Assembly: GCA_021325555.1 (NCBI GenBank)
Contig: JAJPGY010000041.1
Location: 3,317-67,316, forward strand
Direction: 5' to 3'
DNA: 64,000 nt
Source: Pseudomonadota bacterium
GTDB lineage: Bacteria > Cyanobacteriota > Vampirovibrionia > Obscuribacterales > Obscuribacteraceae
The position numbers were made by a program, and so were the translations under genes. Below the pieces are notes generated by a model. That model was not told the DNA's origin and searched no databases. It saw only the letters and a list, made by a program, of their open reading frames with translations. This document shows positions 7,884 through 60,334 of this stretch, in pieces. Each line of letters starts with the position of its first letter. Positions within the stretch are counted from its first letter, which is position 1.

Positions 7884-9482
7884 ATGTTCCCCCAAATTAA
7901 ACCAGATCCGGAAAGCGCCGGCTCGCCCCCGCCCGCCAGCCGGGCCGGCCCGCCGCCGCCGGTCCTCCTCCTCATCCTCCTGCTGGCGGCCGGTTTGCGC
8001 TTCGCCGGCATCACCTTCGACAGCCTGTGGCTGGACGAGGGTTATCAGAGCGTGGTCGAGAGCGTCGGGCGCGCGCTGCCCGACTTTACCAGGCAGCCTG
8101 CCGCGGCCTATCTCTTCCGCCCCGGCCCGCCGGGCGCCCTGTCCGAGGTGATCTCCCGCTTCCGGCAGGTGGATCCGCTCTGCCCGCCGCTCTATGCCGT
8201 GCTTTTGAACCGCTGGATGACCCTTTTCGGGGAAAGCGACCTGGCCTGCCGGGCGCTTTCGGCGGTGCTCTCGCTTTCCACCCTGGCGGCGGTCTATCTG
8301 GTCGCCCGCAAGGTTTTCGACCGGCCCGCGGCGACGCTGGCCGTGATATTGCAGGCGGTGTCGCCTTTCGACATTCACTACGCGCAGGAGGCGCGCATGT
8401 ACAGCCTGGAGATCCTGGCGTCGACCCTCTCCTGCGGCTCGCTCATCTGGCTCGCCGCCGGCGGCAGGCCGGCAAGCGCCGAGAGATTGATATCGCTGGC
8501 GGTGTACGCCGGCTCCACCTGGGCCCTCATCAACAGCCACTACACGGCCCTTTTCGTTGTCCTCTTTCAGGGCTTGTTCCTGACCGTCCTGGCCGTCAAG
8601 CGCCGGGATCCAGGGCTTTTCGCCGGCGTGGCCGCGGCCTGGCTGGGCGTTCTCCTTGCCTGGCTGCCCTGGCTGCATCTTTTCCGGCAGGCGGCGGCCG
8701 CGCGCACCGCCTCCTTTTACGTGGCGCGGGCGGCCAGCTGGTGGTGGCCCTTCTGGGCGCTTCTGGTGAGGGTGCCGTTCAACTGGATCGTCTTCCTCTC
8801 GGGCAACCAGGTGGTGGCGTATGCGGCGCCGCTCTACGCCACCTCGGCCTTCTTTCTGGCGGCGGCCGCCAGGGGCCGGCGCGGTGACACCGCCGGCGAT
8901 GGCAGGCCGGCTTGCCGCTGGCCGGCGGCGGCGGTTTTCGTATGGGCATGGGCGATCGTGCCGCCGCTTTTCGTCTGGCTGCTGGATGTGAAGGAGGGGC
9001 ACCGCGTCGTGGAGATCTCGCGCTATCTGGTGGCCACGGCGCCGGCCGTCTACATTCTGGCCGGGCGCGGCGCCTCGCTGCTCATCGCCCGGCGCCGGCT
9101 GGTGATCTTGCTTGTCGCCCACGTCTTTTTTGCCCTGCTGAACACCGCCTACGCGCACGTCGTTCCCCACCGCGAGCCGTGGCGCCAGATGGCCGCCCTG
9201 GTCGACGGCCTGGTTGCGCCGTCAGAGCTTGTCCTTGTCGCCCAGCCGTACGACATAGTCTGCCTGGACCGCTATCTCAGCCGGCCCAAGCTGCAGGTGG
9301 GCGTGACGCCGGGGCAGGGGCGCCGGGGGATTGAGCAGGCGGTCGGCGGGCGAGCCGGCTTCTGGCTGGTGACGGCGCAGGAAGGTGAGGCGGTGAAGGA
9401 TCTGATCCCCGAGCGCTACCGGATCGAGCGGCAGATCGACCTGCATCACGGGCTGCACCTGCGTCTTTACCGGCAGCGGTAG
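7884..9482 (+). CDS. GT-C fold membrane glycosyltransferase (GT39 / PMT_2 / ArnT-like)
   Basis: 532 aa polytopic membrane protein. The first-loop acidic motif GITFDSLWLDEGYQ is typical of PMT_2/ArnT-type enzymes that use polyprenyl-phosphate sugars. Confidence 0.7.
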   Translation: MFPQIKPDPESAGSPPPASRAGPPPPVLLLILLLAAGLRFAGITFDSLWLDEGYQSVVESVGRALPDFTRQPAAAYLFRPGPPGALSEVISRFRQVDPLCPPLYAVLLNRWMTLFGESDLACRALSAVLSLSTLAAVYLVARKVFDRPAATLAVILQAVSPFDIHYAQEARMYSLEILASTLSCGSLIWLAAGGRPASAERLISLAVYAGSTWALINSHYTALFVVLFQGLFLTVLAVKRRDPGLFAGVAAAWLGVLLAWLPWLHLFRQAAAARTASFYVARAASWWWPFWALLVRVPFNWIVFLSGNQVVAYAAPLYATSAFFLAAAARGRRGDTAGDGRPACRWPAAAVFVWAWAIVPPLFVWLLDVKEGHRVVEISRYLVATAPAVYILAGRGASLLIARRRLVILLVAHVFFALLNTAYAHVVPHREPWRQMAALVDGLVAPSELVLVAQPYDIVCLDRYLSRPKLQVGVTPGQGRRGIEQAVGGRAGFWLVTAQEGEAVKDLIPERYRIERQIDLHHGLHLRLYRQR

Positions 9483-9483
9483 C

Positions 9484-10290
9484 TCAGGAGCGGAACAGGC
9501 TGCTCTGCAGAAGGCCGTTCCTGGCGCACCAGTACTTGACCAGCGTGCCCAGAACGCCAAGCCCGTATTTGACGCTGTTCCAGAAATTGATCGAAGAGGC
9601 CTCGGCGAAATATCTGGTCTCGACGCCGATCTCGGCTATGCGGAAATTGAAGTAGACGGCCTGGCAGAGGATCTCGGCGTCGAACACGAAGGCGATCGAG
9701 TTGCGCAAGAAAGGCACCTGCTCGAGGAAGCGGCGGCTGTATGCCCGGTACCCGGTGTGGAACTCCGAGAGCCTGGTGCCGAGGACCAGGTTCTGCATGG
9801 TGGTCAGGAAGCGATTGGCGATGAACTTGTAGACCGGCATGCCGCCTTTGAGGGCGCCGCCGCCCAGGAAGCGGGAGCCGAGAACGATGTCGGCCTGCCC
9901 GGCCAGGATAGGCGCCACCATCTCCGGGATCTTGCGCGGATCATATTGATAGTCCGGATGCAGCATGATCACCACGTCCGCCCCGTCGCGCAGCGCCTCG
10001 AGATAGCAGGTCTTCTGGTTGCCGCCGTATCCGACGTTGTGCGGGTGGCGGATGATCTTGATGTCCAGCGTGCTGCCCACGGCGACGGTGTCATCTTTGC
10101 TGCAGTCGTCGACCATGATCACCTCGCTGACGGTGCCCTTGGGAATCTCCTCGAAGGTCTTCAACAAGGTCCTGGCCGCGTTGTACGCGGGCATGGTGAC
10201 GATGACGCGCGGCTCGCACCTGTCCGCCTGCCGTTGCGCGGGCAGGTCGGCGGTCTCGCGGATCTTGCAATCTGTGGCGCTGTTGGTCAT
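9484..10290 (-). CDS. Family 2 glycosyltransferase (polyprenyl-phosphate sugar synthase-like, Ppm1/ArnC/GtrB type)
   Basis: 268 aa. GT-A motifs VIVTMPAYNAA...VIMVDDCSKDDT and DADVVIMLHPD (DxD-like). Convergent with, and 1 nt from, the GT-C gene. Confidence 0.8.
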   Translation of the reverse strand: MTNSATDCKIRETADLPAQRQADRCEPRVIVTMPAYNAARTLLKTFEEIPKGTVSEVIMVDDCSKDDTVAVGSTLDIKIIRHPHNVGYGGNQKTCYLEALRDGADVVIMLHPDYQYDPRKIPEMVAPILAGQADIVLGSRFLGGGALKGGMPVYKFIANRFLTTMQNLVLGTRLSEFHTGYRAYSRRFLEQVPFLRNSIAFVFDAEILCQAVYFNFRIAEIGVETRYFAEASSINFWNSVKYGLGVLGTLVKYWCARNGLLQSSLFRS

Positions 10291-10445: not shown

Positions 10446-11681
10446 TTGTCCCGATTCGACACCACCTTCACCCACCGTTGCTACACCCTGATAGGGGCCA
10501 CCTTCGTCGTTTTCGAGTGCTTCTTCCTGACGCTCTACGCCAGTGACTTCTGGTTCGGCCAGGACATAGCCTGGCTGGGAATCCCGACCGTGCTCCTGGC
10601 GGCCGGCATAAGCCACCTTCTCCTGCGCTGGCTCGAAAGCCCTGCCGGCAGCCGTTTTTTCGCGCCAATCTGGCAGGGCAGGCCGCCGGTGTTCTACTGG
10701 CAGCTCGTCTCCGGCAGCGACTCGAGCCTGCGCGTGGGGGCCAGGCATATTCTCTGGACAGCCGTAGACGAGCTGTCGCTGACGTTTTTCGGCAACCTGC
10801 AGGTGAGATCCCGCAGCATCTGCGGGCCGGAGGCGCCGCAGGCGGACCTGGTCGTCAAGCTGCCGCTGGGCGCCCTCTCGCAACAAAGCCAGGTCGAGCT
10901 GGTGGCCGAGGTCAGGGCGCGCAAACCGGGGCTTACCACCAACAAGCGGCTCGAGAAGCGGCTGGCTGCACGAGAGCTCAAGGGCACGGCGGTGGTGCAG
11001 TCCCTGGGGGTGGCTTTCATGGTGCTCATCCTGCTCGATCTCGGGCAGTCCACTTATGCCCTCCTGGAGATGAACAAGCACTACTACCTCTGCCAGACGG
11101 AAGCCAGGGACGGCAGGATGGCATCGGCGCGCCGTCACCTGGCCGCCGGCGATCGCCTGCTCGAGCACCCGCTGCCGGTCTCCTGGGTGAACACCAGGCT
11201 CCTCAAGCAGGGCGTCATCGCCTCCGGCGTGCACCAGAGCCGCTCGCAAGCCCTGGAAAGCCTAGGCCGCCGGGATGAGGCGGTTGCCGAGGCGCGCCAG
11301 GCGCTGGCCTGCTCGCCGGACAGTTACCGGCTCAATCTGCGCCTGGCCAGGCTCCTGGCCGCGGCCGGCGACAGCCGCCAGGCGCGCGCCGAGATAAGGC
11401 TGGCCATTAAGAACCACGACAACTCGCTTTTGCCCCGGCTCTACATGCTGGCCCAGCTGGCCGCAGACGGCGAGCCCGACCGGATGAGAAGGTTCTACCG
11501 GCTGTACCTCGATGATCTCACCGACCTGGTGTTCGGCCAGGAGCCGACGTGGCCGCCGGGCGGCAATCGGTTCCTGCACGAGCTTTTTTATTCGGAGGAT
11601 GTAAGGTTCGTCTTCGATCGGCTGCTCGGTTGCGCGGGGGCGACCGCTAGCCCTCCTTGCGGCTCCAGTAAACACGAATGA
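10446..11681 (+). CDS. Membrane-anchored TPR-like repeat protein (hypothetical)
   Basis: 411 aa with a TTG start. Hydrophobic N-terminal segments are followed by a helical repeat region (ALESLGRRDEAVAEARQALACSPDSYRLNLRLARLLAAAGDSRQARAEIRLAI). Function unknown. Confidence 0.5.
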   Translation: MSRFDTTFTHRCYTLIGATFVVFECFFLTLYASDFWFGQDIAWLGIPTVLLAAGISHLLLRWLESPAGSRFFAPIWQGRPPVFYWQLVSGSDSSLRVGARHILWTAVDELSLTFFGNLQVRSRSICGPEAPQADLVVKLPLGALSQQSQVELVAEVRARKPGLTTNKRLEKRLAARELKGTAVVQSLGVAFMVLILLDLGQSTYALLEMNKHYYLCQTEARDGRMASARRHLAAGDRLLEHPLPVSWVNTRLLKQGVIASGVHQSRSQALESLGRRDEAVAEARQALACSPDSYRLNLRLARLLAAAGDSRQARAEIRLAIKNHDNSLLPRLYMLAQLAADGEPDRMRRFYRLYLDDLTDLVFGQEPTWPPGGNRFLHELFYSEDVRFVFDRLLGCAGATASPPCGSSKHE

Positions 11682-12189
11682 ACTTCTCGCGATGGGCCGG
11701 CTTGAGCTCCAGCTCCCCTTTGAACGACTTGTAGAACTGCTTGCCGATCCGCTGCGCCAGCCACTTTGTGGTGGTGAGAATGCGCATCCGGCCTTTGTTC
11801 GTCTCCACCTCCGCGATCCGGGAATGCGGGTTGTCGTGCCAGGCCTTGCCCTCCGTGTGCTTGATCAGCGCCATCACCGTGTCTTTCTGCTCCTCGAGGA
11901 GCGGGGACTCCAGGATGACCTCGCCCTCCCACAGCCGGCGGTCTATTCGATCGCAGCCCGGGCAGAGCGTCTCTGTCAGGTGGTTCTTCCGCACCAGCTG
12001 CTTAAGCTGGTCGTTGTCCATGTACCAGTGCTTCTCCTGGCAGAAAGCCCCACAACGCCTGCACACGTATTTGCCGGCGCCCTGCTTCTCCTTGCTCTCG
12101 AAGCGCCTGTCTTCAGGAAATCGGTCATGTGTGTGACCGAGCACGGACATTCTCTCTTGTTGTACGCGAGATCTGGTTTGTCCACGCAT
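11647..12189 (-). CDS. Small zinc-ribbon protein, NMD3-like / BCAM0308-family-like (recognised from memory only)
   Basis: Probable start MRGQTRSRV... at ATG 12189, preceded by GGGAGAA. Contains CRRC...CPGC followed by ...RIAEVE...ILTTTKWLAQRIGKQFYKSFKGELE...IRVYWSR, a pattern I recall from BCAM0308-family proteins. The ORF track extends it to 12279. Confidence 0.5.
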   Translation of the reverse strand: MRGQTRSRVQQERMSVLGHTHDRFPEDRRFESKEKQGAGKYVCRRCGAFCQEKHWYMDNDQLKQLVRKNHLTETLCPGCDRIDRRLWEGEVILESPLLEEQKDTVMALIKHTEGKAWHDNPHSRIAEVETNKGRMRILTTTKWLAQRIGKQFYKSFKGELELKPAHREKFIRVYWSRKEG

Positions 12190-12410
12190 ATTGCTTCTCC
12201 CAACAAAACTAGCTTTGATGAAACCAGTGTCTTTTCCTCTCCTAACCTTATTCAACCCCTTTTTTGCTATTCCAAACACACGGTGAGCCCGACAGGCGAC
12301 ATCGCCCGGGCCGCCCCGGCCCGAGCCTGGTTTCCGCCGGCGGGCAATTTCACATCCCTTTACGCGGATGCGAGCAGGCGGCAGAAGCGGGAAGTCTCGA
12401 GGGGCGCCGG

Positions 12411-13667
12411 TCAGATCCTGGGCGCCGGTCTGGCCCCGGCCAGGGTCTGGCGGCGGGCCGGGTCGTCCTCCAGCCTGCCGGCCAGCCCGGCATCCGCTTT
12501 GATGGCCTTGGCCAGCATGGTGAAGAATCTGGCGCCGCCGCGGGCGTTCAGGTGCACGGTGTCCAGGTAGTCCTGGCGGGTAAAGACCGGGCTGGCCGAA
12601 TAATCCAGCCAGCCGGCGTGGTGCCGGGCGCAGGCGCCAGCCATCTTCTCGTGGAAGGAGGCCCAGAAGCTTTCCGGCAGAAGCGCCCGGTTGGAGGGCA
12701 GGCTAGGCATGCCGACCACCAGCACCTTGATGCCGCGGCCGTCGAGATAACCGAGCAGGCGATCGAAGAAGACCAGCTCCTGCCGGTAAACCGGCGGATC
12801 GGGCAGGCGGTAACGGTGCCTGTACTCGATGGTGTTGTCCATCCACAGCCCCCGTATGTTGGCCGGAACCAGCATAGTGCCCGGCTGGAGGTCGCCGGTG
12901 ATGTCGAAAATAGCCTGGACGTTCTGATACCGCTTGTGGTGCCTGGCCGGCGTCGTGTCCTGCCAGCGCCGCTCCAGCTCCTCCTGCACCCAGCACAGCG
13001 GCAGGCGGTTGCGCAGAAGCCACTGCAGGTACGCGAAGGGATCGCCGAAGGCCTGTCCCGACAGCTCGCCCAGTCCGACGGCCCGCGAATAGAACCGGAA
13101 CGGCTCCGTCTCGGCCGGGCTGGCCATGCTGTTGTCCATGAAATCCCGCGGCGCCACCCCGATGATCGCCAGCTTCGGCAGGCGCGGGCCGCTGAACAGG
13201 GCGCGGCTCAGCATGTAGGCGTCCGAGACCATAAAGCCGCCCTGCGAAAAGTTGAAGACCGTAAGCGGGCGGCCCAGCTCCCGTTTGAGGTCGGCCTCGA
13301 AGGTGCTTGCCTGGCGGTGAACGAGAACGTCCATCGGCCGGCCGAGAAGCTCGGCGTCGGCCGTGAAGGTGGCCGTTCCCACCTGCGAGCTGCCGATGAG
13401 GGCGATATCGGGGGCGGCGGGCCGGTCCAGATAAGCGCTGGCCGTCCACCAGCTGAAGGAGCGCTCCTTCGCCCGGGCCAGCGCATCGGCCAGCAAGGAC
13501 TCCGGGCTGGCCGCCGCTTGCGGGCGCACCATGAAGCCGGCGACAGCCAGGTTGACGAGCAGGAAAAGCAGAACGGCCACCACGGAGCGGCTGGCCAGGG
13601 CGCGCGTCCACCGGCTGCTGGCGCCGCCTGCCCCTCCCGCGCTCAAGCCTTTGCCGGTCGTCATCAC
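12411..13667 (-). CDS. Membrane-anchored SGNH/DltD-like (DUF1574-like) putative O-acyltransferase, paralog 1
   Basis: 418 aa with an N-terminal hydrophobic helix. Motifs ALIGSSQV, GVAPRDFMDN, EYRHRY, GMPS, DTVHLNARGG. GTG 13667 or ATG 13664 start abuts the stop of paralog 2. Confidence 0.65.
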   Translation of the reverse strand: MMTTGKGLSAGGAGGASSRWTRALASRSVVAVLLFLLVNLAVAGFMVRPQAAASPESLLADALARAKERSFSWWTASAYLDRPAAPDIALIGSSQVGTATFTADAELLGRPMDVLVHRQASTFEADLKRELGRPLTVFNFSQGGFMVSDAYMLSRALFSGPRLPKLAIIGVAPRDFMDNSMASPAETEPFRFYSRAVGLGELSGQAFGDPFAYLQWLLRNRLPLCWVQEELERRWQDTTPARHHKRYQNVQAIFDITGDLQPGTMLVPANIRGLWMDNTIEYRHRYRLPDPPVYRQELVFFDRLLGYLDGRGIKVLVVGMPSLPSNRALLPESFWASFHEKMAGACARHHAGWLDYSASPVFTRQDYLDTVHLNARGGARFFTMLAKAIKADAGLAGRLEDDPARRQTLAGARPAPRI

Positions 13668-14938
13668 TACAAGGTCCCGTTGCGATTGGAACTGGCCATC
13701 ACGTAGCGCTCCAGCTCCTTGCCGGCCAGGGCCATCGCCTGCGAAACCTGCCTGTCCGCGGCCAGGTAGTCGACGAGCCGGTCGACGAACTTCTTGCCGC
13801 CGAACGGGTTCAGGTGCACGGAGTCGTGATAATCAGACCACCGGTACTGGTCGAACTCGGCGAGATCGTAATAGGTCACCCCGTGCTCGAAGCAGGCCGT
13901 CCGCACGTGCTGGACGAAGCGGGGGTATTCTCCCGGGGCCATGAGCGTGGTGTTGTAGAAGGAGATCGGCATGTTGACCACGATGAGCTCGATCCGCTCC
14001 TTGCGGCAGAACTGCAGGAGCTGCTTGAGAAAGTAAAGCTGCGTGCGATAGGTATGGAGGTCCGGCGAGCGATAGCGATCCTGGTACTCGCGGGTGTTGT
14101 TCTTGAACCCCTTGCTGCACGTGGCCTGATCCGCCGGGCTTATGATCACGGAGCCCGGACAGAGCTCGGCCGGCTTGTAGCCGGGCAGGAGCCGCTCCCT
14201 GTCCCAGAAAGTGAAGGCCGGCCGGGAAGCCGGCCTGGGCAGGATCCTGGCCAGAACCCGATTGGACCAGTCGCCGAACTTGAGCTGAAAGTCCAGAGCG
14301 TTGCCGTAGAGGTAGACCTGCCTTTCCAGCCACCAGTTGATCTTGGCCATCGGCGTGCGAAAGAGCGCCCGGGAGACGTCATCGAGGTTGACCAGCCGCC
14401 GGAAGTAGCGGAAGGCCTCGGTGTCCAGCGGGCTGGAAAGCGTGCTGTCCAGGAAATCGCGCGGCGCCACGCCGTAGATCACCACGTCCGGCCGGTGCGC
14501 GCAGTTGACCATGGCGCGCAGGGAGAAGTAAGCGTCGGAGGGCATCGCCCCCGGCAGGGCCAGATCGTAGGTGTTGAACATGCCCCCGAATGTGGTGCGC
14601 AGCCGGTGATCCAGATAGGTCGCCCGGTGGTAGCTCGTCAGATCGAGCGGCCTGCCCAGATAATTGGCGTCGCAGCTGGAGATGGCGCTTATGGTCAGCG
14701 ACGAGCCCAGAAGGGCCACGTTGTGGACGTCCGGGCTTCTCCTCAGGTCGTTCAAGGCCCACCACGCCCAGCCGCGGTAGGGGAAGTTGAACCTGTCGAA
14801 GTGGACCGGGGTGAAAAAGGAGAGGTAGGCGTTGACCAGGGCGAAGAGCACAACGCCGACCACGAAGGCGCTGGGGTGGAGGCGCCAGCCGGGCTGGGCG
14901 CCCGCGTCACCATCTGGATTTTGCCTTTCGGTCACCAT
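13667..14938 (-). CDS. Membrane-anchored SGNH/DltD-like putative O-acyltransferase, paralog 2
   Basis: 423 aa with an N-terminal hydrophobic helix. Motifs ALLGSSLT, GVAPRDFLDS, EYQDRY, NMPI, DSVHLNPFGGKK. Confidence 0.65.
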   Translation of the reverse strand: MVTERQNPDGDAGAQPGWRLHPSAFVVGVVLFALVNAYLSFFTPVHFDRFNFPYRGWAWWALNDLRRSPDVHNVALLGSSLTISAISSCDANYLGRPLDLTSYHRATYLDHRLRTTFGGMFNTYDLALPGAMPSDAYFSLRAMVNCAHRPDVVIYGVAPRDFLDSTLSSPLDTEAFRYFRRLVNLDDVSRALFRTPMAKINWWLERQVYLYGNALDFQLKFGDWSNRVLARILPRPASRPAFTFWDRERLLPGYKPAELCPGSVIISPADQATCSKGFKNNTREYQDRYRSPDLHTYRTQLYFLKQLLQFCRKERIELIVVNMPISFYNTTLMAPGEYPRFVQHVRTACFEHGVTYYDLAEFDQYRWSDYHDSVHLNPFGGKKFVDRLVDYLAADRQVSQAMALAGKELERYVMASSNRNGTL

Positions 14939-14952
14939 AGCCCTCGCCCCCT

Positions 14953-16245
14953 CTACATCTCAGGCTGGCGCTTGCCGGGGCGGGCCGGGCGCAGCGCCGA
15001 ATCGGCAGCCAGCCTGTCGGCCAGCATATCGAGCATCTTCTTTCCGCCCCCGGAATGCAGATGCACGGTGTCCATGAAGTCGGACTGTTTGAAGGCGCCT
15101 GAACCATCCAGGTCGAGGAAAGACGCCCCCTTGACCGTGGCCAGCACGTGGATGCTGTTCCGGTAGGCGTCCCAGGCGTAGCCGGCGATGAGCGAGCGAT
15201 TGATCTCTGTTATCGGCATGGAGACGACCACCACGTGGATGCCCCGCTGCCTGGCCACATCGAGCAGCTCGGCGAAGAAACGCATCTGGGTGGTGAAGGT
15301 GTCCCAGCGGACCGTCGAGTAACGCTTGCGGTACTCGGCGATGTTGTCCGCGAAGGTGAGCTCGTCCTTGCCGTGCGGGCGGAAAAATGCCTCGCCGGCC
15401 TCCAGCCCGCCCATCTGATAGCCGGGCAGGATCTCCCGGCGATGAGCCACCGTATATGGTGTGACCCCCGGCGGCACCGGCAGCAGACGGTCGAGCAGCC
15501 GGCAAAGCGCCTGCCCGGCCCGGCAGCTGAGCTCCTCCTTCATGCCGTACAGATATACGCAGCGCCCCAGCCGGTAGTTGAAGCGATCGACCCAGTCGGG
15601 CATCACCCGGTCGAGCATGCCGCTTATGTCCCCGAACCGGCTCAGGCAGCGGAAGAGATCCGTGGAGGCCGGGCTGGGCAGCAGGTTGTCCATGAAGTCG
15701 CGCGGGCCCACGCCGTAGACCAAAACCGGCGGGGTCTTCTTGCCGTCGAGCAGGTAGTCGGTGATCAGATAGGCGTCCGAGGGCATCTGTCCGGGAAGCG
15801 CCAGGATGAACGACCGGATGCTGCTGCCGGTGCGCCGCTCGATGCCGTGCTCGAAGTAGTAGCTGCGGTGGTGCTGGCTGCCGTCCAGGCGCCGCCCGAG
15901 AAAGTTGGCGTCCACCGTGGCCACCGGCACCAGCACCAGCGACGAGCCCAGGAAGACCACCTGCGGGCGCTCGTCACCGGTAAGGAAGTCCCTGACCGCC
16001 CAGCCGGCCCAGGTCTTGTCGCGGACCTGCCAGGCAGGGGCGCGGGCGAAGCTCACCGTCGCCGCCATCGCGCAGACAAGGGCGAAGGCGACGGCGGCAA
16101 AGACGAAGCGGCTGGAAATCAGCTGCTCGATGAGATCCGGCCCCCGGGCGGGCGCACCGGCGCTCGCGGAGCGTGCCCCGACCCTACAGGCGTTGCCGAG
16201 CGATCTCTCGTCGGCGGCCGCGCTAGCGCTTTTCGCTGGCACCAT
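14953..16245 (-). CDS. Membrane-anchored SGNH/DltD-like putative O-acyltransferase, paralog 3
   Basis: Start taken at ATG 16245 (MVPAKSAS...), which overlaps the MBOAT stop by 1 nt (TAATG). Motifs VFLGSSLV, GVGPRDFMDN, EYRKRY, SMPI, DTVHLHSGGGKK. The ORF track extends it to 16305. Confidence 0.65.
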   Translation of the reverse strand: MVPAKSASAAADERSLGNACRVGARSASAGAPARGPDLIEQLISSRFVFAAVAFALVCAMAATVSFARAPAWQVRDKTWAGWAVRDFLTGDERPQVVFLGSSLVLVPVATVDANFLGRRLDGSQHHRSYYFEHGIERRTGSSIRSFILALPGQMPSDAYLITDYLLDGKKTPPVLVYGVGPRDFMDNLLPSPASTDLFRCLSRFGDISGMLDRVMPDWVDRFNYRLGRCVYLYGMKEELSCRAGQALCRLLDRLLPVPPGVTPYTVAHRREILPGYQMGGLEAGEAFFRPHGKDELTFADNIAEYRKRYSTVRWDTFTTQMRFFAELLDVARQRGIHVVVVSMPITEINRSLIAGYAWDAYRNSIHVLATVKGASFLDLDGSGAFKQSDFMDTVHLHSGGGKKMLDMLADRLAADSALRPARPGKRQPEM

Positions 16246-17696
16246 TAGAACTGGAAGTAGATGAAGCGGGGCGAAGTGTCTGGGCTGAATACGGTCAGCA
16301 GGCACATGAGCGCCACCATGACGCCGACCTGCACGGCCCAGGGCGGGCTCTGATAGAAGCGCTTGCCGTTGAGCCAGTTGACGATCGGTTGCGAGATCAT
16401 GAGCACCGGCAGGATGAGAAGCAGCGCCGGGAAGATGAGCGGGTCGCGGATCTGCAAAACGGCCAGCTGCCTGAGCGAGAAGTGCAGCAGCTCCGCCGGG
16501 GCGGTGAGCATCTTCAGGACCATCTGGTTGGCGGCAGCGATCGTGTCGGCGCGGAAGAAGACCCAGCCGATGCAGACCAGGTGGAAGGTAAAGACCACGG
16601 ACAGCGCGTGGTAGATCTTCGACTTAAGGAGCCTCTCCGCCACGCCGGCCGCCTCGAGCGCTCGCCCGTACTCCCGGTGAGCGATCAAGAGGATCCCCTG
16701 ATAGGCGCCCCAGACCAGGAAGTGCATGGCCGCGCCGTGCCACAGCCCGCCCAGGGCCATGGTGATGAAGAGGTTCCTGTACGTCTGGGAGCGGGTGCCC
16801 CGCGACCCGCCGAGCGGGATGAAGAGGTAGTCGCGCAGCCAGGTCGAAAGGCTTATGTGCCAGCGGTGCCAGAAGTCGGCGACATTGGCGGCCAGGTAGG
16901 GAAGGTTGAAATTGATCGGCACCTTGTAGCCGAACAGCATCGCCGAGCCGCGGGCTATATCCGTGTAGCCGGCGAAGTCGAAGAAGATCTGGAAGGCGAA
17001 AGCGTAGGTGATAAGCCAGAGGTCGACCGCCGAAAAGCTCTCCGGGTGCGAGAACCCCGCCTGGGCGACAAGCGCCAGGTTGTCGGCGATGATCACCTTC
17101 TTGAACAGGCCCATGAGGATAAGCTGCATCCCCTGGTCCAGGTACTCCCACTTGAACTTGCCCGGGTAGCCGAGCTGGGGGATGAAGTCCTGGTAGCGCT
17201 TGATCGGGCCGGCGATCTGGGTGGGGAAGAAGGAGGCGAAAAGCGCGAAGGCGGGCAAGGAGGTGACGACCGGCTTGCCGCGATAAACCTCCACCGCGTA
17301 GTGGATGAACTCGAAGACAAAAAAGGAGATCCCCAGCGGCAGGATGATGTGCAGGTGCGGCTGGCGGACGGTCAGGCCGAAGAAGTTGAAGCAATCGGTG
17401 ACGGTGCCCGCAGCGAAGTTGGCGTACTTGAATACCCCGAGCGTGATCAGGTTCAGGGCGACGACTATTCCCACCCACAGCTTCTTGTGCTTGGTGCTCC
17501 TGGCGATGAACGGCACCAGGAAGAAGTTGCCCAGGGTCAGCCCGAGGATGAGCAGCCCGTAGATGGGCCGCCAGGACATGTAGAAGACGTAGCTGGACAC
17601 CAGCAGCAGTGGCACCCGCAGCCGCTGGGGAATTATCCAGAACAGCAGGAAGACCGTCGGCAGAAAGACCAGATATTGAAGACTGTTGAAAAGCAA
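16245..17696 (-). CDS. MBOAT family membrane-bound O-acyltransferase (AlgI/DltB/PatA-like)
   Basis: 483 aa polytopic protein, MLFNSLQYLVFLPTVFLLFWI... MBOAT signature FWHRWHISLSTWLRDYLFIPLGGSRG and the conserved His in LGGLWHGA. Confidence 0.9.
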   Translation of the reverse strand: MLFNSLQYLVFLPTVFLLFWIIPQRLRVPLLLVSSYVFYMSWRPIYGLLILGLTLGNFFLVPFIARSTKHKKLWVGIVVALNLITLGVFKYANFAAGTVTDCFNFFGLTVRQPHLHIILPLGISFFVFEFIHYAVEVYRGKPVVTSLPAFALFASFFPTQIAGPIKRYQDFIPQLGYPGKFKWEYLDQGMQLILMGLFKKVIIADNLALVAQAGFSHPESFSAVDLWLITYAFAFQIFFDFAGYTDIARGSAMLFGYKVPINFNLPYLAANVADFWHRWHISLSTWLRDYLFIPLGGSRGTRSQTYRNLFITMALGGLWHGAAMHFLVWGAYQGILLIAHREYGRALEAAGVAERLLKSKIYHALSVVFTFHLVCIGWVFFRADTIAAANQMVLKMLTAPAELLHFSLRQLAVLQIRDPLIFPALLLILPVLMISQPIVNWLNGKRFYQSPPWAVQVGVMVALMCLLTVFSPDTSPRFIYFQF

Positions 17697-17916
17697 TCTT
17701 GGATCTCCTTACGCGGGCCGGCGCCGGCAAATTGGCCCGGACAACATTCTCCTTGAAACCCCGAAAATCCTCATTAGATGCGGCAAATCCAGGGTTGCCA
17801 CGCAGGGCGGAATCCATCATAGATGGTGGATTTCAAGAATGTCCAGCAAAACCTTTCCGTCTTAATCTAAAGGATTTCCTATATTGAAAACCCTGCCGCC
17901 CCTTGAAAACCGGGCG

Positions 17917-18642
17917 CTATTCAACCTCGCTGACGGCCTGGCGGCTGAAGCCCTCGGGAATAAGCTGGTAGCCGCCGCCATAGACGGTCTTTATGTATTT
18001 GCGGTCGGGGGTCTCCAGGCGGGTTCTCAAGTGGCGGATGTGGACGCGGATCGTATCCACGTCGTCGTCGGGAGAATAGCCCCAGACCTCCTCCAGAAGC
18101 TTGCCGGTGGAGACCGTCTGCCCGTGGTGCTGGATGAGGCAGTGCAGGATTTCAAACTCGGTGGGCGTCAGCTTGACCACCCGGTCGCGCACCTTGGCCT
18201 GCAGGTTCTCGGGGATGAGCGTGATCTCCCCGGCCGTGAGGATCTCGGGCAGCGACGCCGATTCCGGCACCGAGCCCGAGCGCCGCAGAAGCGCGCGCAC
18301 CCTCACCTGCAGCTCGGGGATCTCGAAAGGCTTGACCAGATAATCGTCGGCGCCGGAGTCGAAGCCGGTCACCTTGTCACGGGTCATGCCCAGCGCCGTC
18401 AGCATGAGCACCGGAATCGGGTGGGTGCTGGGGTTCTGCCGCAGCCGCTGGCAGACCGTGAAACCATCGAGGTCCGGCATCATCACGTCCAGCACGATCA
18501 GGTCCGGCCGGTTCTGCTGCGCCAGCGCCAGCCCCTTGACGCCGTCGGGGCAGGTAGTCACGTGGTGCCCGAGCAGCTCCAGGTTCACCTTCACCAGCTC
18601 GGCTATAGCCTGGTCGTCGTCGATTACAAGAATCCTGCTCAA
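17917..18642 (-). CDS. OmpR-family response regulator (RpaB-like), no adjacent kinase
   Basis: 241 aa. REC domain (ILVIDDD...[14 protein letters not shown]...MLTAL...[10 protein letters not shown]) plus a winged helix ([12 protein letters not shown]...VWGY...[16 protein letters not shown]). Confidence 0.9.
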
Positions 18643-18663
18643 TTTGCTTCTCCGCCTCCGCGC

Positions 18664-19842
18664 CTACTCCGGCGCGCTCACACCCAATTTTACTGGAATT
18701 TTCACCAGGCGCCCCTGCCTGAGCACGGTCAGGGTTATCACCTGGGACGCCTTGCGCCCCTCGATGTATGACATCAGGTCGTCGAAGGTGCGCGTCCTCG
18801 TCCCGTCCACGGCCTCGATGATATCGGCCGTGCTGAAGTCGACGCTGCTCAGGGTGAACGGCCCCTGCCGCTGCACGGTCACCCGGGGACCGGTGATACC
18901 GGCGGCGGCGGCCGGGCCGCCCTCCTCCAGGCGGATTACCCGGAGCCCCTGTTCGGTCGGCTGCACCATCTGAATGCCTATATCCGGGCGAATCACGCGG
19001 TGATGCGCGATCAGCTCCGGCACCAGACGCCTGGCGATATTGATCGGGATGGCAAAGCCGATCCCGGCCGACTGCCCGGACCGGCTGACGATCGCCGTGT
19101 TGATGCCGATCATCCGCCCGGCGGTGTCAAGCAGGGGGCCGCCGGAGTTGCCTGGGTTGATGGCGGCGTCGGTCTGGATGATCCCTTTGATAAGCCTCCC
19201 GTCCTCGGCGCGCAGCGTGCGCCCGAGGCTGGAGACGATCCCCTGCGTGAGCGTGCGGTCGAGCCCGAAAGGGTTGCCGATGGCAAGCACCTTCCTGCCG
19301 ACCTCCAGCCGGGAGGAATCACCGAGCGGGATGGTGGCCAGCTTCATCCCGGGCGGGGGGTCGATCTTGAGCACGGCCAGATCGTTCGACGGATCGGTGC
19401 CCACGACATCGGCCGGCAGGTTGGTGCCGTCGAAAAGCGTGACGCGCACCGCGCGCGCGTTCTCCACCACGTGATTGTTGGTCAGGATATGCCCCTGCTC
19501 GTCGATGATCGTCCCCGAGCCCGAGCCCTGCTGGGGAACGATGTTGAAGAACACCTGCTCGGGGGAGAGCCCGCCCACGGTGGTGATGTTGACCACCGCC
19601 TTGTTGGTGGCACGATAGACCCGGATGTTGGTGCTCTCCTCCGGCGAGATGCCAGCCTCGGCAAGCAACTGGCTGCCGATCCTGCCCACCGCCGGGCGGC
19701 GAGACCCGGCGCCGGCGACCTGTCCGTGCCGGGCCGGCGAGGCCGGCGAGGCGGCCGCCAGCATCGCCAGGGCCAGGGCCCAGGCGCCCCCTGCCAGAGC
19801 GGGGCGCGAAAAACGTCGCCAGTCTGTGGTAGTTGTTGCCAT
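18664..19842 (-). CDS. htrA: HtrA/DegP-family serine protease with PDZ domain
   Basis: Start MATTTTDWRRFS... at ATG 19842, with a signal-like AWALALAMLAAASPA. Catalytic His (LTNNHVVE), Asp (DLAVLKI) and Ser (GNSGGPLLD), followed by a C-terminal PDZ-like region. Confidence 0.9.
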   Translation of the reverse strand: MATTTTDWRRFSRPALAGGAWALALAMLAAASPASPARHGQVAGAGSRRPAVGRIGSQLLAEAGISPEESTNIRVYRATNKAVVNITTVGGLSPEQVFFNIVPQQGSGSGTIIDEQGHILTNNHVVENARAVRVTLFDGTNLPADVVGTDPSNDLAVLKIDPPPGMKLATIPLGDSSRLEVGRKVLAIGNPFGLDRTLTQGIVSSLGRTLRAEDGRLIKGIIQTDAAINPGNSGGPLLDTAGRMIGINTAIVSRSGQSAGIGFAIPINIARRLVPELIAHHRVIRPDIGIQMVQPTEQGLRVIRLEEGGPAAAAGITGPRVTVQRQGPFTLSSVDFSTADIIEAVDGTRTRTFDDLMSYIEGRKASQVITLTVLRQGRLVKIPVKLGVSAPE

Positions 19843-20584: not shown

Positions 20585-21931
20585 CTACTTTTCCCGGCTC
20601 TTGGCACGGGCGACGATGCGCAGCGCCGTGCCGGCAAAGCCGAACGCCTCGCGCAGTTTGCGCTCCAGGTAGACGAGGTAGCTGCCGGCCAGAAGCGTCG
20701 TATCGTTTACAAAAAGCACGAAGGTCGGCGGGGATACCGAGACCTGCGTGGAGTAATAGATCTTCAAGCGCCGGCCGCGCTTGCCCGACGGCGGCGGCGT
20801 CACCGCCACCGCCTCGTTCACCACCTGATTGACAAGCCCGGTGGCCACCCGCCTTTTGCTTTCGGCAAAGGCCCGCTGGGCGGCTTCCAGAATTTTGCCG
20901 ACCCGGGTCTTGGCCGTGGCGCTGACGAAGACGACCTCCGCGTACTTTAGATGCGGGAGCGCCTGGTGAGCCGCGTCGATGAACCTGTTCATCGAGCCGG
21001 ACGACTTGTCCTCCACCAGGTCCCACTTGTTGTAGACGACAACGGCCGCCTTGCCGGCCTCGTCGATCTTGCAGCCGATCTTCTGGTCCTGATCGGATAT
21101 CGGCTCGCTGGCGTCGATGACCAAGACGGCCACGTCCGCCCGCTCGATGGCGGTCAGCGAGCGGACCACGGAGAAGGCTTCGACGCCGTAGGGCACCTTC
21201 GACTTGCGCCGGATGCCGGCCGTGTCGATGAGCGTCACCTCCCGCCCGTGGAACCTGATTGTCGTGTCGACGGCATCGCGGGTGGTACCGGGCACCGGCG
21301 TGACGATCGAGCGGGTGGCGCCGCAGAGCACGTTGACCAGCGACGACTTGCCGACGTTGGGCCTGCCCACCACCGCCAGCGAAAAAGGTCCCGTGCCGTC
21401 GCCCTCCTCCTCCGCGGCCGCCTCCTCGGCCTCGCCGAAGGCGGCAACCACCTGATCCAGCAGATCGCCGACGCCGCCGGTGCCGCGCATGGCCGAAAGC
21501 GACAGCGGCTCACCCAGACCCAGCTTGTAGAACTCCAGCTTGTTGGCCTCCTGATGGGGCTCGTCGATCTTGTTGACGGCCAGGATCACCGGCTTGCGCG
21601 CCCGCCGGAGCAGGTTCGCCACCTCCTCGTCGGCGCCTGAAAGCCCGGCCTTGCCGTCGACCATGAAGACGAGCACGTCGGCCTGCTCGATGGCCAGGTT
21701 GCACTGATCGCGCACCGCCGCCGTCAGCTCCTCGCGGCTGTCCGGCACGATGCCGCCGGTGTCCACGAGAAGGAACTTGCGGCCCGCCCACTCGGCCTCG
21801 CGGTAGATGCGGTCGCGGGTGACCCCCGGCTGATCGTGGACGATCGCCGCGCTCTCCTCGATGCAGCGATTGAAGAATGTCGATTTGCCTACGTTTGGCC
21901 GGCCGACTATGGCGACAACCGGTTTAGCCAT
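20585..21931 (-). CDS. der: Ribosome-associated GTPase Der/EngA
   Basis: 448 aa. Two G domains (GRPNVGKSTFFN and GRPNVGKSSLVN; NKID and NKWD) plus a KH-like C-terminus. Confidence 0.95.
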   Translation of the reverse strand: MAKPVVAIVGRPNVGKSTFFNRCIEESAAIVHDQPGVTRDRIYREAEWAGRKFLLVDTGGIVPDSREELTAAVRDQCNLAIEQADVLVFMVDGKAGLSGADEEVANLLRRARKPVILAVNKIDEPHQEANKLEFYKLGLGEPLSLSAMRGTGGVGDLLDQVVAAFGEAEEAAAEEEGDGTGPFSLAVVGRPNVGKSSLVNVLCGATRSIVTPVPGTTRDAVDTTIRFHGREVTLIDTAGIRRKSKVPYGVEAFSVVRSLTAIERADVAVLVIDASEPISDQDQKIGCKIDEAGKAAVVVYNKWDLVEDKSSGSMNRFIDAAHQALPHLKYAEVVFVSATAKTRVGKILEAAQRAFAESKRRVATGLVNQVVNEAVAVTPPPSGKRGRRLKIYYSTQVSVSPPTFVLFVNDTTLLAGSYLVYLERKLREAFGFAGTALRIVARAKSREK

Positions 21932-23630
21932 CGTTCTCCTGCGTCTTTTCCCCTTCAGGTCTGTCAGGCATGCGCCGGAAGGAAGTGGTGGCAGTGCCGA
22001 ACTTCTTGCCCAGCTTGGGGGCCTGGGCCTCGAGAAAACGGTAGAGCGTGTCCTTGGCCGTGTTCAGGTAGACGGCTATCTCGGTGTCGCCGCCGGAGTC
22101 CGGATGCTCGGTGGTCATCTCCTTTTTCCAGGCCTGGTGAACGGTCTCGAAGGTCAGCTCCTCGGGCCTCAAGCCGAGAACCAGGCAAGCCTTGCGAATG
22201 TCGGGCGGCACCGACCTTATCACGAACCCCTGCGGCGGCGGCTCCTGCGGTGCCCGGTTGCCGCCGACGAACCTGGTCGTCGTCCGGCGCATCGACTCCT
22301 CCTCCTTGCCGGCCTGCGGCTCCTCGGGAGCGCGGCCGAAGCGGTGCTTGAGGAGATCGCGCAGCTCGTCCTCGCTCAAGGTGGTGGATTTGATCTTTGC
22401 GCCCGCTTCCTCGACCGGCCCGGCCGAAGCGCCTGCCTGCTCCGCGGCCGCCTCCAGGAGAGCCTCCGCTGAGGTCCTGGTGCCGGTCAGATCCTCCCCG
22501 GGCTCGGGCGAGGCAAACTCCTCCCGCCCGCCGACCAGCAGATCGACCGGCAGGTCGACCGGCTCGAGCACGTCAGCTTCGGGAACTGCCGGCTCGGCCG
22601 AGGCGGACTGCCAGGCGCCGGGCCCGGCGGGCTCTCGCTGGTCGAGCGGCGCATCGTAGCCGCCGGGGAAAACGGGCTCCTGGCCTTCGCTTTCCGGGGG
22701 CGGGGGCGCAGACCAGCCTTCGCCGGGCACAGGCGCCGAAGGGCCGGTATGCCAGCCTTCCTCGGAGACAGCGGCCGCGGGCCCGGAATGCCAGCCGTCG
22801 TCCGGCTCTGGCGGTCCCTGCCAGCAAGACTGCTCCGGCAGCGGCGGCTCGGGGGCGGCGGCCGCCGCCATGGACTCGCAGGCGGCGCTCGGCGCGAGCT
22901 GCTCTTCCCGGCCGGGCACCGGGGCGGGCTCTATGCCATCACCGGCGATACCATAGTCCGCTTCCTCCGCCAGCCAGGCGGGCTCCTCCGCCCGCATCAC
23001 GGGTTCTTCTTGTCCGCTCACCGGCTCCTCGCGGCCGCTCACCGGCTGCGCCGGCACCGCTGCGGGTTCATCCAGCAAGCTCACCGGCTCTGCCAGCAGG
23101 CTGGCCGGCTCTTCCGGGAGGCGCGGCTGCTCGTGTGCGGCTCCAGCCTCATAACCGGCCTCCCGGTACCGCGGCTCGGCCGCGGGCCCGACCGACCGGC
23201 TGCTGAGCTCCAGGACCTGCTCTTGCAGAGCCCGGCTCTCCACCATGATCTGCGTGAGCTGACTCTCCAGCTCCTCGCGCTCCCTGGTGGCGGCGGAAAG
23301 CTCGCGCTCCAGCTTCCGGCTCAGCTGGCGGCTCTCCTCCAGGGCCTCCTGCAGTTGCTGGTTGCTCTCCTGCAGTTGCTGGTGGCTCTGCTCCAGCTCG
23401 GCTATTCGCTTGACCATCTCCTCCGAGGCCGCGCCTGACGGGCCGCCCGCCCGCGCCTCGGAGATCAGATCCATCAACTCCTGGCTGCGGTAAAGCGTCG
23501 AGCGAGGAATCCTGGCCTCGTCGGCCACCGTGTAAGGATTGATGTCCCAGCCCTTGCTCTTGAGGGATTTGATGGCATCAAGCACCACTTGCGGATCGAT
23601 CTTCTTCTGCCCGGTAAGGTCCTTCAACAT
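21924..23630 (-). CDS. Multidomain J-domain protein: N-terminal HTH-like region, coiled coil, acidic Pro/Glu-rich repeats, C-terminal DnaJ-like J domain
   Basis: 568 aa. C-terminal ACLVLGLRPEELTFETVHQAWKKEMTTEHPDSGGDTEIAVYLNTAKDTLYRFL contains the HPD tripeptide in a J-domain-like context. Central region has QQLQESNQQLQEALEESRQL (coiled coil) and EEP/EPV repeats. Its stop overlaps the der start by 8 nt. Confidence 0.6.
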   Translation of the reverse strand: MLKDLTGQKKIDPQVVLDAIKSLKSKGWDINPYTVADEARIPRSTLYRSQELMDLISEARAGGPSGAASEEMVKRIAELEQSHQQLQESNQQLQEALEESRQLSRKLERELSAATREREELESQLTQIMVESRALQEQVLELSSRSVGPAAEPRYREAGYEAGAAHEQPRLPEEPASLLAEPVSLLDEPAAVPAQPVSGREEPVSGQEEPVMRAEEPAWLAEEADYGIAGDGIEPAPVPGREEQLAPSAACESMAAAAAPEPPLPEQSCWQGPPEPDDGWHSGPAAAVSEEGWHTGPSAPVPGEGWSAPPPPESEGQEPVFPGGYDAPLDQREPAGPGAWQSASAEPAVPEADVLEPVDLPVDLLVGGREEFASPEPGEDLTGTRTSAEALLEAAAEQAGASAGPVEEAGAKIKSTTLSEDELRDLLKHRFGRAPEEPQAGKEEESMRRTTTRFVGGNRAPQEPPPQGFVIRSVPPDIRKACLVLGLRPEELTFETVHQAWKKEMTTEHPDSGGDTEIAVYLNTAKDTLYRFLEAQAPKLGKKFGTATTSFRRMPDRPEGEKTQENDG

Positions 23631-53622: not shown

Positions 53623-54063
53623 CTATTCGGCTTTGACGCCGATCTTTCTCGGCTTGTCCGCTTCAGCACGCGGCAATGTGATCTGGAGAACGCCGTTGCT
53701 GAACCGTGCCTGAACATTGTCGGCATCGACACCGAACGGCAGCTGAAGCGAGCGGGTGAACTCACCGTACCCGCGCTCCTGGCGGTGGCACCGCTGACCG
53801 TTCTTCAGCTCCTCCGCCTTGCGGGAGCCCTTTATGGTCAAGGTGTTGTTGACCAGGGAGATCTCCACATCGCTTGGCTCGATGCCGGGAATCTCGCTGC
53901 GAACGACCGCTCCGTTCTCGGACGCCCATACATTGACAGGCGGGAACTCCTCGGCCGCGGGCCAGCCACCCGCCGACAACAAGCGATTCAGCTGTTGCTG
54001 GAGCCGCTGCATATCCCGCAGGGAGCTGAGCACATCGTTCTCTACAAATTTCTGTAGCAACAT
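53623..54063 (-). CDS. Hsp20/alpha-crystallin small heat-shock protein (copy 1)
   Basis: 146 aa. PPVNVWASENGAVVRSEIPGIEPSDVEISLVNNTLTIKG...GEFTRSLQLP...NGVLQITLPR. GGAGGC lies 8 nt upstream of the ATG. Confidence 0.9.
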   Translation of the reverse strand: MLLQKFVENDVLSSLRDMQRLQQQLNRLLSAGGWPAAEEFPPVNVWASENGAVVRSEIPGIEPSDVEISLVNNTLTIKGSRKAEELKNGQRCHRQERGYGEFTRSLQLPFGVDADNVQARFSNGVLQITLPRAEADKPRKIGVKAE

Positions 54064-54091
54064 ACCCTACGCCTCCTTCAACTTAGATCCC

Positions 54092-54119
54092 GGGAATGCG
54101 GTGTCGGAATCGCATTCCC
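54092..54119 (-). promoter_or_regulatory. Perfect 9-bp inverted repeat (GGGAATGCG-N10-CGCATTCCC) in the hsp20 leader
   Basis: Read directly: arms at 54092-54100 and 54111-54119, 29-57 nt upstream of the hsp20 ATG at 54063. It could be a repressor operator or a 5' UTR hairpin. Confidence 0.4.
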
Positions 54120-54440
54120 TTACACCTATCAATCTATCGATGAGGAGCTGATGGAAAGCGAAAAGCACAAGTTTTCTTAAACTTATTCACGGGTCGAAAA
54201 AGCCTTTGTTACTGGACCCTTACCGTGGACAGCCTCACCCTTTCGGCCCCGGCAGCCGGTCTGCTTGTCCTGTCGATAACCTGTCTTCTCATCGGAGCCT
54301 GGAAGCTGACTCGCCTGGGCTGGAGGGCGCCTGGCGATTGTAGTTGCCGGACCGGTGCACCAAAAGCACCGCTAGCTGATCTCCCCTCCCTCTTTAGAGC
54401 AGCGTTCCGGCTTTCTGCTTCGTCGCCCCTGGTGACAGTG

Positions 54441-57199: not shown

Positions 57200-57214
57200 C
57201 ATTGTGATGCCAGA

Positions 57215-58480: not shown

Positions 58481-58678
58481 GTTCGAAACGGTCTTTCTCC
58501 GCAACCGGACCAGGGATTGCCCAGATAAAGAAGTACCACAGGCACCATGAGATTCGGCAGGCTTACAGGCCATCGTTAACCCGGCGGCGACTTCGGGCAA
58601 TAAATAACTTGGTTACAAAGGCGCCGTAAAGTTTTCAGCAGCCTATTTTGTTAGAAGGATTGGTCGAGGGTAGCAGCC

Positions 58679-60333: not shown

Positions 60334-60334
60334 T

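Follow-up and report, generated by a model that had tools for sequence, protein, structure and literature searches.

An Obscuribacterales operon joining one MBOAT to three DltD-like SGNH paralogs is a predicted envelope O-acylation system conserved across the order

Work published in 2024-2025 showed that bacterial membrane-bound O-acyltransferases (MBOATs) hand acyl groups to SGNH partner proteins by way of a C-terminal acyl-tyrosine. PatA of Neisseria gonorrhoeae auto-acetylates, from acetyl-CoA, the Tyr of its C-terminal FxYxxF motif (FIYANF), PatB takes an acetyl-Tyr peptide as donor, and the conserved MBOAT His has a catalytic role in both PatA and DltB (Anderson et al., PMC12148441). A shuttle fused to the MBOAT on two extra helices is the hallmark of the acyl-CoA-using AlgI/PatA/WssH group, whereas DltB is without these helices and relies on the separate microprotein DltX together with DltC (PMC12148441). 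Acetate is the sole acyl group demonstrated for MBOATs of the fused-shuttle type, and MBOATs with an FxYxxF tail are not known to function in the absence of an SGNH acceptor (PMC12148441). Characterised systems have one SGNH partner per MBOAT, or two in the case of alginate (PMC9487903, PMC4148444), where AlgJ and AlgX have 'separate and distinct roles': AlgX binds alginate and transfers acetate, and AlgJ has esterase activity and no polymer binding (PMC4148444). Here we analyse a 64-kb window (the whole stretch of DNA under study, taken from contig JAJPGY010000041.1) of a soil relative of the cyanobacteria in the order Obscuribacterales, in which a four-gene operon on the minus strand places one MBOAT ahead of three DltD-like proteins, P3, P2 and P1. 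Because the features described below agree with the biochemistry of PatAB and Dlt, the operon very probably encodes an acyl-CoA-dependent MBOAT-SGNH O-acylation system of the cell envelope that works like PatA/PatB, with a relay from MBOAT to SGNH protein at its core.

An initial annotation, made from the sequence, had described the combination of one MBOAT and three partners as unusual on the grounds that characterised systems pair an MBOAT with one partner, or two in alginate. The papers cited above agree on the number of partners, and in the literature searched we found no description of an MBOAT with three such partners and no function for the SGNH family present here. The four open reading frames and their order, MBOAT, P3, P2, P1, are as that annotation gave them, and the gene boundaries match the public gene calls for this sequence in four independent assemblies. 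The MBOAT gene (16245-17696, minus strand; 483 aa) starts with a TTG codon at 17696, 8 nt 3' of an AAGGAG ribosome-binding site. Directly after it comes P3 (14953-16245, minus strand; 430 aa), the ATG of which lies within a 1-nt overlap, TAATG at 16245; P3 is separated from P2 (13667-14938, minus strand; 423 aa) by a 14-nt gap with a GAGGG ribosome-binding site inside. P2 ends with a TAG stop at 13667-13669. P1 (12411-13664, minus strand; 417 aa from its ATG) could start at a GTG at 13667 that shares the last G of this TAG, which gives the abutment originally proposed, or at the ATG at 13664, 2 nt past the P2 stop, which public gene calls prefer. With this alternative start for P1, all three proposed junctions are borne out. 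At the gene junctions of related loci, 4-nt overlaps are frequent.

The MBOAT protein matches the Pfam MBOAT family (E = 1.3e-30), and its residues 120-382 align to the DltB structures 6bug and 8jem (E = 2.5e-30). Past this DltB-aligned core it extends for about 100 residues with two hydrophobic segments, the two predicted additional C-terminal transmembrane helices that give it its AlgI/PatA type. In the structure alignment His320, within GGLWHG (codon 16737-16739, minus strand), falls opposite the GFWHG His of DltB (chain residue 336) and is the predicted equivalent of the universally conserved catalytic MBOAT His; GGLWHG is unchanged in all 76 of the 76 MBOAT orthologs compared. We had considered WHISL as the catalytic His motif and dropped it because the DltB alignment puts the equivalent residue in GGLWHG; WHISL is a second conserved motif. 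The last six MBOAT codons (16248-16265, minus strand; translation verified) read FIYFQF, an FxYxxF acyl-shuttle motif with a predicted acyl-accepting Tyr480. This tail is unchanged in 70 of 70 orthologs, and in any frame of the window it is the sole C-terminus of the form F.Y..F. Because FIYFQF lies at the C-terminus on the extra helices, whereas DltB uses a separate DltX, the MBOAT can be assigned from its sequence to the acyl-CoA, fused-shuttle type. The invariant His and the tail thus agree with the proposal that the operon contains the type of MBOAT that hands acyl groups to such partners. Among 57 orthologs the MBOAT has a mean identity of about 78%, and it is more conserved (mean distance 0.22) than its partners (0.48-0.58).

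A different donor would be compatible with any of the readings discussed below: D-alanine, as in Dlt, or a longer acyl chain. The nearest structures and curated models are indeed DltB and DltD, and the donor is not readable from sequence. Set against this, the shuttle is fused to the MBOAT on two extra helices, as in the acyl-CoA-using AlgI/PatA/WssH group (PMC12148441), and the scores against the curated models fall far under their cut-offs (MBOAT against TIGR04091 for DltB, 189.5 bits with a cut-off of 375; the paralogs against TIGR04092 for DltD, 17.5 bits with a cut-off of 150). Because there is also no DltA, DltC or DltX in the 64-kb window, we take the system to be of the acyl-CoA MBOAT-SGNH type; a Dlt-type system is ruled out by the missing genes together with the fused shuttle, and we consider another donor very improbable. 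Acetate is the most likely acyl group by analogy, because it is the only one demonstrated for MBOATs with a fused shuttle.

The three predicted membrane-anchored partners are 30-33% identical in pairwise comparison. Against a hidden Markov model (HMM) derived for the most part from P2 orthologs, with P1 and P3 as 2 of its 83 rows, P3 scores 421 bits (E = 1e-128) and P1 scores 352 bits (E = 1e-107). Because these scores lie far beyond chance, the paralogy of P1-P3 is, at the level of sequence, certain. The ordered blocks they had been proposed to share, L(I/L)GSS, GV(A/G)PRDF(M/L)D, EYxxRY, MP and D(T/S)VHL..GG, are found in each. The codons of the two catalytic motifs, with verified coordinates on the minus strand, lie at 15940-15948 (GSS) and 15061-15072 (DTVH) in P3, at 14699-14707 (GSS) and 13814-13825 (DSVH) in P2, and at 13386-13394 (GSS) and 12552-12563 (DTVH) in P1, the most diverged of the three. 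Across about 70 genomes, GSS, G.M.SD, PRDF.D, EY..R, MP, N and D..D.VH are 93-100% conserved in each orthogroup, as is the first G of the terminal GG. Because the core motifs are kept to this degree in every orthogroup, no paralog looks like a dead enzyme and all three are apparently catalytic.

A single N-terminal hydrophobic helix is present in all three groups, as had been suggested for the window proteins, with Lys and Arg richer before the helix than after it; hydropathy and charge predict an N-in orientation of this anchor. The spacing from anchor to catalytic Ser is about 34, 35 and 49 residues in the three groups, with ranges of at most 13 residues, and juxtamembrane Trp residues are conserved across the paralogs. 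Such short and constrained spacing suggests membrane-proximal catalysis, as in DltD.

Comparison with established families places the paralogs at some distance from all of them. Pfam profiles for DltD, DUF1574, ALGX and Lipase_GDSL_2, to which the initial annotation had pointed, do give matches in the C-terminal part of P1-P3, and all of them are below the gathering score: the best are 19-22 bits for DUF1574 (PF07611; cut-off 29.1) and 11-17.5 bits for DltD (PF04914; cut-off 22.7), and ALGX (PF16822) is matched by P1 alone (E = 0.1; 12.7 bits with a cut-off of 26.5). The DUF459 (PatB) and DHHW families of Pfam gave no match to P1-P3 at E values up to 1. Relatives within the clade do pass the Pfam gathering scores, with 27-29 bits for DltD and 30.6-39 bits for DUF1574. 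Judged by these scores, P1-P3 are divergent relatives of DltD and DUF1574 and not scored members. DUF1574 was listed in a 2022 review as an SGNH family without known activity or structure (PMC9487903). In precomputed annotation, PF27429 ('LB_356') is assigned to P2 and its orthologs and to P3; the match is faint for P2 and P3, and P1 has no record. Profiles of the paralogs gave only chance hits against PDB sequences, and the link to DltD came from fold comparison alone. A tblastn search of the PLSDB plasmids with P2 gave no match.

The AlphaFold2 model of P2 has a predicted local distance difference test score (pLDDT) of 92.5 and a predicted template modelling score (pTM) of 0.89, and that of P1 has a pLDDT of 89.6. 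For P2 and for P1 alike, a Foldseek comparison with the PDB puts DltD chains in all of the first ten places (entries 3bma, 6pfx, 7dxm and 6o93; E = 6e-6 to 2e-4 for P2), with generic SGNH esterases next. In the P2 model strand 1 leads to GSS, placed where a helix begins; strand 2 is followed by a conserved Gly and the final strand by D-x-x-H, and a helical insertion of about 150 residues stands between strands 3 and 4; this modelled order of secondary structure fits the SGNH layout. The proposal that GSS and DxxH represent SGNH blocks in DltD-like proteins is upheld by these fold matches and by the conservation of the motifs. By the models of P2 and P1 and the motifs of all three, P1-P3 are DltD-like SGNH-fold proteins with Ser and Asp/His motifs.

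To follow the operon across genomes, we scanned one genome per species and obtained 80 loci. Of these, 68 are labelled Obscuribacterales, Melainabacteria, Cyanobacteria or cyanobacterial genera; the labels of the remaining 12 are generic or name another phylum, yet nearly all of them have the same synteny. Homolog searches likewise returned mainly Obscuribacterales or Melainabacteria, and an exhaustive profile search gave 2,976 representative clusters, which carry no taxonomy, at E <= 0.001, with 534 of them at E <= 1e-30. The order MBOAT-P3-P2-P1 is present in 70 of the 71 loci that form the deduplicated set with enough flanking DNA. The lone exception (L017, 1-8444) has a solitary P2 ortholog, with a more distant MBOAT 5 kb upstream that is cut by the contig end and directly followed by a paralog of a fourth type (P4, described below). 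Some metagenome-assembled genomes with these Obscuribacterales-type genes are labelled Chloroflexota, Flavobacterium psychrophilum, Bryobacterales, Proteobacteria, Drouetiella and Oculatellaceae (loci L024, L034, L035, L069, L014/L085/L086/L088 and L062). Most of these loci have the full MBOAT-P3-P2-P1 order, and L085 and L088 hold orphan copies only; these bins are probably either mislabelled in their taxonomy or contaminated.

This retention bears on whether the paralogs might be ordinary secreted or anchored lipases or esterases that are independent of the MBOAT they adjoin, as their sub-threshold Pfam matches and the presence of orphan paralogs far from any MBOAT would allow. The MBOAT stands beside the partners in 70 of 71 loci with coupled junctions, a second MBOAT found in related genomes also directly precedes a member of the family, and an MBOAT with an FxYxxF tail has no known SGNH-independent function (PMC12148441). 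We regard mere adjacency as scarcely credible.

A neighbour-joining tree of 239 sequences recovers every positional group as monophyletic, so that each of the three paralogs has its own clade (71 sequences in the case of P3), and the nearest neighbour of a sequence always lies within its own group. Because the positional groups are monophyletic and identity is 41-53% within groups against 26-30% between them, the triplication, as read from these sequences, predates the sampled radiation of the order. Positions conserved at 90% or more number 60-103 per group, and just 30 of them are common to all three groups; this indicates, within the limits of sequence comparison, that each paralog is under separate constraints and is non-redundant.

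The P1 group has the lowest within-group identity, 41%, and only 60 conserved positions compared with about 100 for the others. This raises the question of whether one or more of the paralogs might be esterases that take off or edit acyl groups, like Ape1 beside PatA and PatB. Most characterised SGNH proteins are esterases, and the triad alone cannot tell a transferase from a hydrolase (PMC12148441; PMC9487903). Of the three paralogs, P1, as the most diverged and least constrained, would be the natural candidate. Nonetheless, all three belong to one DltD-like family with the same anchor and the same juxtamembrane Trp residues, whereas known erasers such as Ape1 are soluble and of a different SGNH family, with a carbohydrate-binding module. 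We therefore consider a mixture of writers and erasers improbable.

From the fold, motifs, operon structure, order-wide conservation and age of the triplication, we infer a donor, a direction of transfer, an arrangement of the partners and an acceptor, as follows. The MBOAT would take an acyl group from cytoplasmic acyl-CoA, and His320 would assist its loading onto the Tyr of the FIYFQF tail, on the outer side of the inner membrane. The tail would then offer the acyl-Tyr to the catalytic Ser (GSS) of an anchored DltD-like SGNH protein, which would move the acyl group to a hydroxyl of a membrane-near acceptor. P3, P2 and P1 would work in parallel, each drawing from the same shuttle and each serving its own acceptor or position. 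We hold this last element, parallel use with distinct acceptors or positions, as a tentative preference at slightly under an even chance. Because the system is found in nearly every sampled member of the order and the catalytic domains are predicted to lie near the membrane, the evidence points to a widely conserved, membrane-proximal envelope component as the acceptor.

Members of the SGNH family outside the operon help to weigh this arrangement. In 22 of 70 loci a paralog of a fourth group, P4, is encoded downstream on the other strand (for example L009:10718-11914 and L024:10808-12019, both minus strand). P4 keeps GSS and D.VH, branches outside P1-P3 and carries the NCBI name 'DUF1574 family protein', and P4-type relatives pass the DUF1574 gathering score. 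One member of this group (P0313) is present on the 598-kb contig from which the window is taken, outside the window. Orphan P2-like copies with about 39% mean identity to the P2 orthologs occur in L079, L082, L085, L088 and L090, with no MBOAT or other paralog within 8 kb, and some of the genomes that have them also hold the operon with three paralogs. The neighbours of the L090 orphan include a YfhO-family protein and a PatA_N/GGDEF protein. A tandem pair of family members (396 and 438 aa) is present without an MBOAT at L095:5821-8317, beside a SASA-family (sialate O-acetylesterase-like) gene and a PAS histidine kinase.

A second MBOAT with a single partner is found in related genomes at L094:5540-8185 (CAZJLR010000001.1) and L091:6531-9230. 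The L094 locus lies on the same contig as a locus with three paralogs (L037), and the second-locus MBOAT of L091 ends in FIYFQF. Conserved neighbours of this one-partner locus encode an alpha/beta hydrolase, a GT28 resembling MGDG synthase and a protein of some 480 aa without annotation, and the locus may be a glycolipid-linked counterpart of the three-partner operon. Because it exists in a genome that also has the latter, one partner can suffice for an MBOAT of this kind.

Nine representative clusters are fusions of two SGNH domains (600-765 aa), with a P3/P2/P4-like SGNH domain followed by a P1-like one that has no anchor of its own. Five have one N-terminal anchor; the rest, including P0121 in L096, are without a strong hydrophobic segment. 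Two fusions were located, at L096:7001-9298 (GCA_027451745.1) and L097:3089-5314, among genes for a relaxase, a TraG-type coupling protein, SSB and a primase, and they look like the cargo of conjugative elements; no MBOAT was found within 7 kb of either.

These fusions bear on the main alternative to parallel use, in which P3, P2 and P1 would cooperate on the MBOAT as a hetero-oligomer or an acyl relay that serves one acceptor, as AlgJ, AlgF and AlgX do. There is precedent for such cooperation: AlgJ and AlgX both have catalytic triads and both are required (PMC4148444), and an AlgIJFX complex has been described (10.1101/2023.07.25.550544). The natural fusions of two SGNH domains, with one anchor or none, fit this alternative, as do gene junctions that overlap or nearly abut and the retention of all three paralogs in fixed order with no lineage-specific loss. 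The relevance of the fusions is made uncertain by the finding that those of L096 and L097 lie on DNA resembling conjugative elements with no MBOAT nearby. Distance-matrix correlations, which run from 0.91 to 0.96 among the paralogs, are barely above those with the unrelated neighbours HtrA and PlsY (0.89-0.94); because all of them are close to 0.9, this mirror-tree comparison does not discriminate co-evolution. P1-P3 share one architecture, unlike the anchored AlgJ and the polymer-binding AlgX (PMC4148444), and all have a short spacing from anchor to Ser; no carbohydrate-binding module and no soluble member marks out a terminal transferase. We consider such cooperation a serious alternative, though on balance the less likely one. 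We favour the parallel arrangement because the paralogs have a single shared architecture, one partner suffices at the second locus, and the extra copies without an MBOAT vary; the variable P4 and orphan copies fit the idea of add-on transferases that plug into an existing MBOAT.

Several observations weigh against the acylation system as we have drawn it, in particular its parallel form. The likeness to DltD is remote, with TM scores of 0.32-0.43, 10-15% identity and no sequence-level match in the PDB, and the canonical block III Asn cannot be assigned in the paralogs. Among 57 related loci, the three-partner operon has no linked polysaccharide or glycolipid pathway. Co-retention in fixed order (70 of 71 loci) and frequent 4-nt overlaps would be equally expected of an obligate complex, and the two-domain fusions behind one anchor hint at cooperation between paralogous domains.

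Parallel use can be extended to a broader scheme, which we offer more speculatively still. A single acyl-Tyr shuttle would be a hub for interchangeable anchored DltD-like transferases, each with its own envelope acceptor; three would be fixed in the operon, others, namely P4 and the orphans, would act in trans, and some would be two-domain proteins on conjugative elements.

Genes next to the operon were examined in the window and in the same 57 loci. In the 220-nt gap 5' of the MBOAT gene, a promoter-like site (17816-17845, minus strand; TGGACA, 18 nt, TATGAT) is a possible operon promoter on the weak evidence of a consensus scan, which gave 2 sites in the region with 1.0 +/- 1.2 expected. An Rfam scan of 11500-18800 gave no match, and a terminator scan around the operon found fewer sites than in shuffles. 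Directly upstream of the operon is an OmpR-family response regulator (17917-18642, minus strand; Pfam Response_reg and Trans_reg_C), a position that does not imply membership in the system. Upstream, the 57 loci share the response regulator (56 loci), HtrA (55), PlsY (55) and Der (53); downstream, they have a TPR membrane protein (38) and, within 8 kb of the operon, PilB/PilT (12) and a GT-C/GT2 pair (6). A GT-C/GT2 pair and the type IV pilus had been put forward as the nearest candidate substrate machinery, and their presence near the operon in just 6 and 12 of the 57 loci does not support them as linked machinery. In the window, the GT-C (PMT_2, plus strand) and GT2 (minus strand) genes at 7884-10290 are convergent and 1 nt apart, an ArnT/ArnC-like pair. 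As originally noted, there is no polysaccharide synthase among the window proteins scanned, nor is there an AMP-binding or carrier-protein (PP-binding) gene; no AlgF-like gene was found near the operon, and an HMM search found no further paralog and no second MBOAT in the window.

The gene directly downstream of P1 (11647-12279, minus strand) encodes a zinc-ribbon protein with a marginal NMD3 match, and its 3' end overlaps by 35 nt a convergent TPR gene at 10446-11681 (plus strand). The TPR gene is the one kept downstream in 38 of the 57 loci, and on visual inspection its product seems hydrophobic in the N-terminal region; none of the inspected loci L005, L007 and L089 showed the NMD3-like gene downstream. 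Just upstream of der lies a gene (21924-23630, minus strand) for a 568-aa protein with no Pfam match and long acidic stretches rich in Pro, Glu and Ala, a homolog of which is found upstream in 33 of the 57 loci. Elsewhere in the window, G+C drops at 54000-64000 from about 0.65 to 0.55-0.58, and third-position G+C from about 0.85 to 0.63-0.77; this segment may be horizontally acquired or otherwise atypical. A gene within it (57215-58600, minus strand) encodes a receiver domain fused to a Ser/Thr protein kinase domain.

What the locus adds to the recent work on acyl-tyrosine shuttles is one conserved shuttle, with 78% identity and an invariant tail, facing three partners that have been separate throughout the history of the order. 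The locus lends itself to asking what decides the choice of partner at the shuttle, whether a single MBOAT can feed several transferases, and what the uncharacterised DUF1574/LB_356 branch of the SGNH proteins does. It points to an apparently universal envelope modification in Obscuribacterales, with a practical weight limited by hosts that are mostly uncultured. The hub scheme, if true, would amount to a modular acylation network with one donor and many acceptors, in a sister lineage of the cyanobacteria that has received little study.

Among described systems, PatA/PatB of Neisseria and Campylobacter resembles the operon in the catalytic His and in the FxYxxF tail carried on two extra helices (PMC12148441). 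It is also alike in having an adjoining gene for a separate, N-terminally anchored SGNH partner and in using no carrier protein or microprotein. The differences are that the partners here fall outside the PatB/DUF459 family, that there are three of them and not one, and that no Ape1-like esterase is present. The Dlt system shares the partner fold, which is nearest to DltD, the MBOAT core, which aligns to DltB, and a single N-terminal anchor helix, which DltD also has. It differs in its use of DltA, DltC and DltX, none of which the window has, and in a shuttle that is not fused to the MBOAT, and equivalog scores are far below cut-offs; the host is a diderm and is not expected to have lipoteichoic acid.

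Alginate acetylation, by AlgI, AlgJ, AlgF and AlgX, is the one characterised system in which an MBOAT has several SGNH-like proteins. Its AlgJ and AlgX are members of the ALGX family (WssI is AlgX-like), need AlgF and are encoded within an operon for polymer synthesis and export, whereas the operon described here has three DltD-like proteins of the same architecture and no synthase. The DUF1574/LB_356 group is connected with the paralogs through the PF27429 assignments of P2, its orthologs and P3, faint for both P2 and P3, and through the P4-type relatives that pass DUF1574; it differs in that P1-P3 are under the DUF1574 cut-off and P1 has no PF27429 record. The WssH/WssI (cellulose) and PatA1/PatB1 (secondary cell wall polysaccharide) systems follow the same logic of MBOAT plus SGNH protein (PMC12148441; PMC9487903). 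Each of them has a single partner from another SGNH family, DHHW in the case of PatB1 (PMC9487903), and was described together with its polysaccharide pathway. By sequence, then, the locus lies outside the Dlt, alginate, PatB/DUF459 and DHHW families, and in its sequences and models it has the features of the acyl-CoA-type systems: the His of the MBOAT, an FxYxxF tail fused to that enzyme and, encoded beside it, a predicted SGNH partner with its Ser and DxxH.

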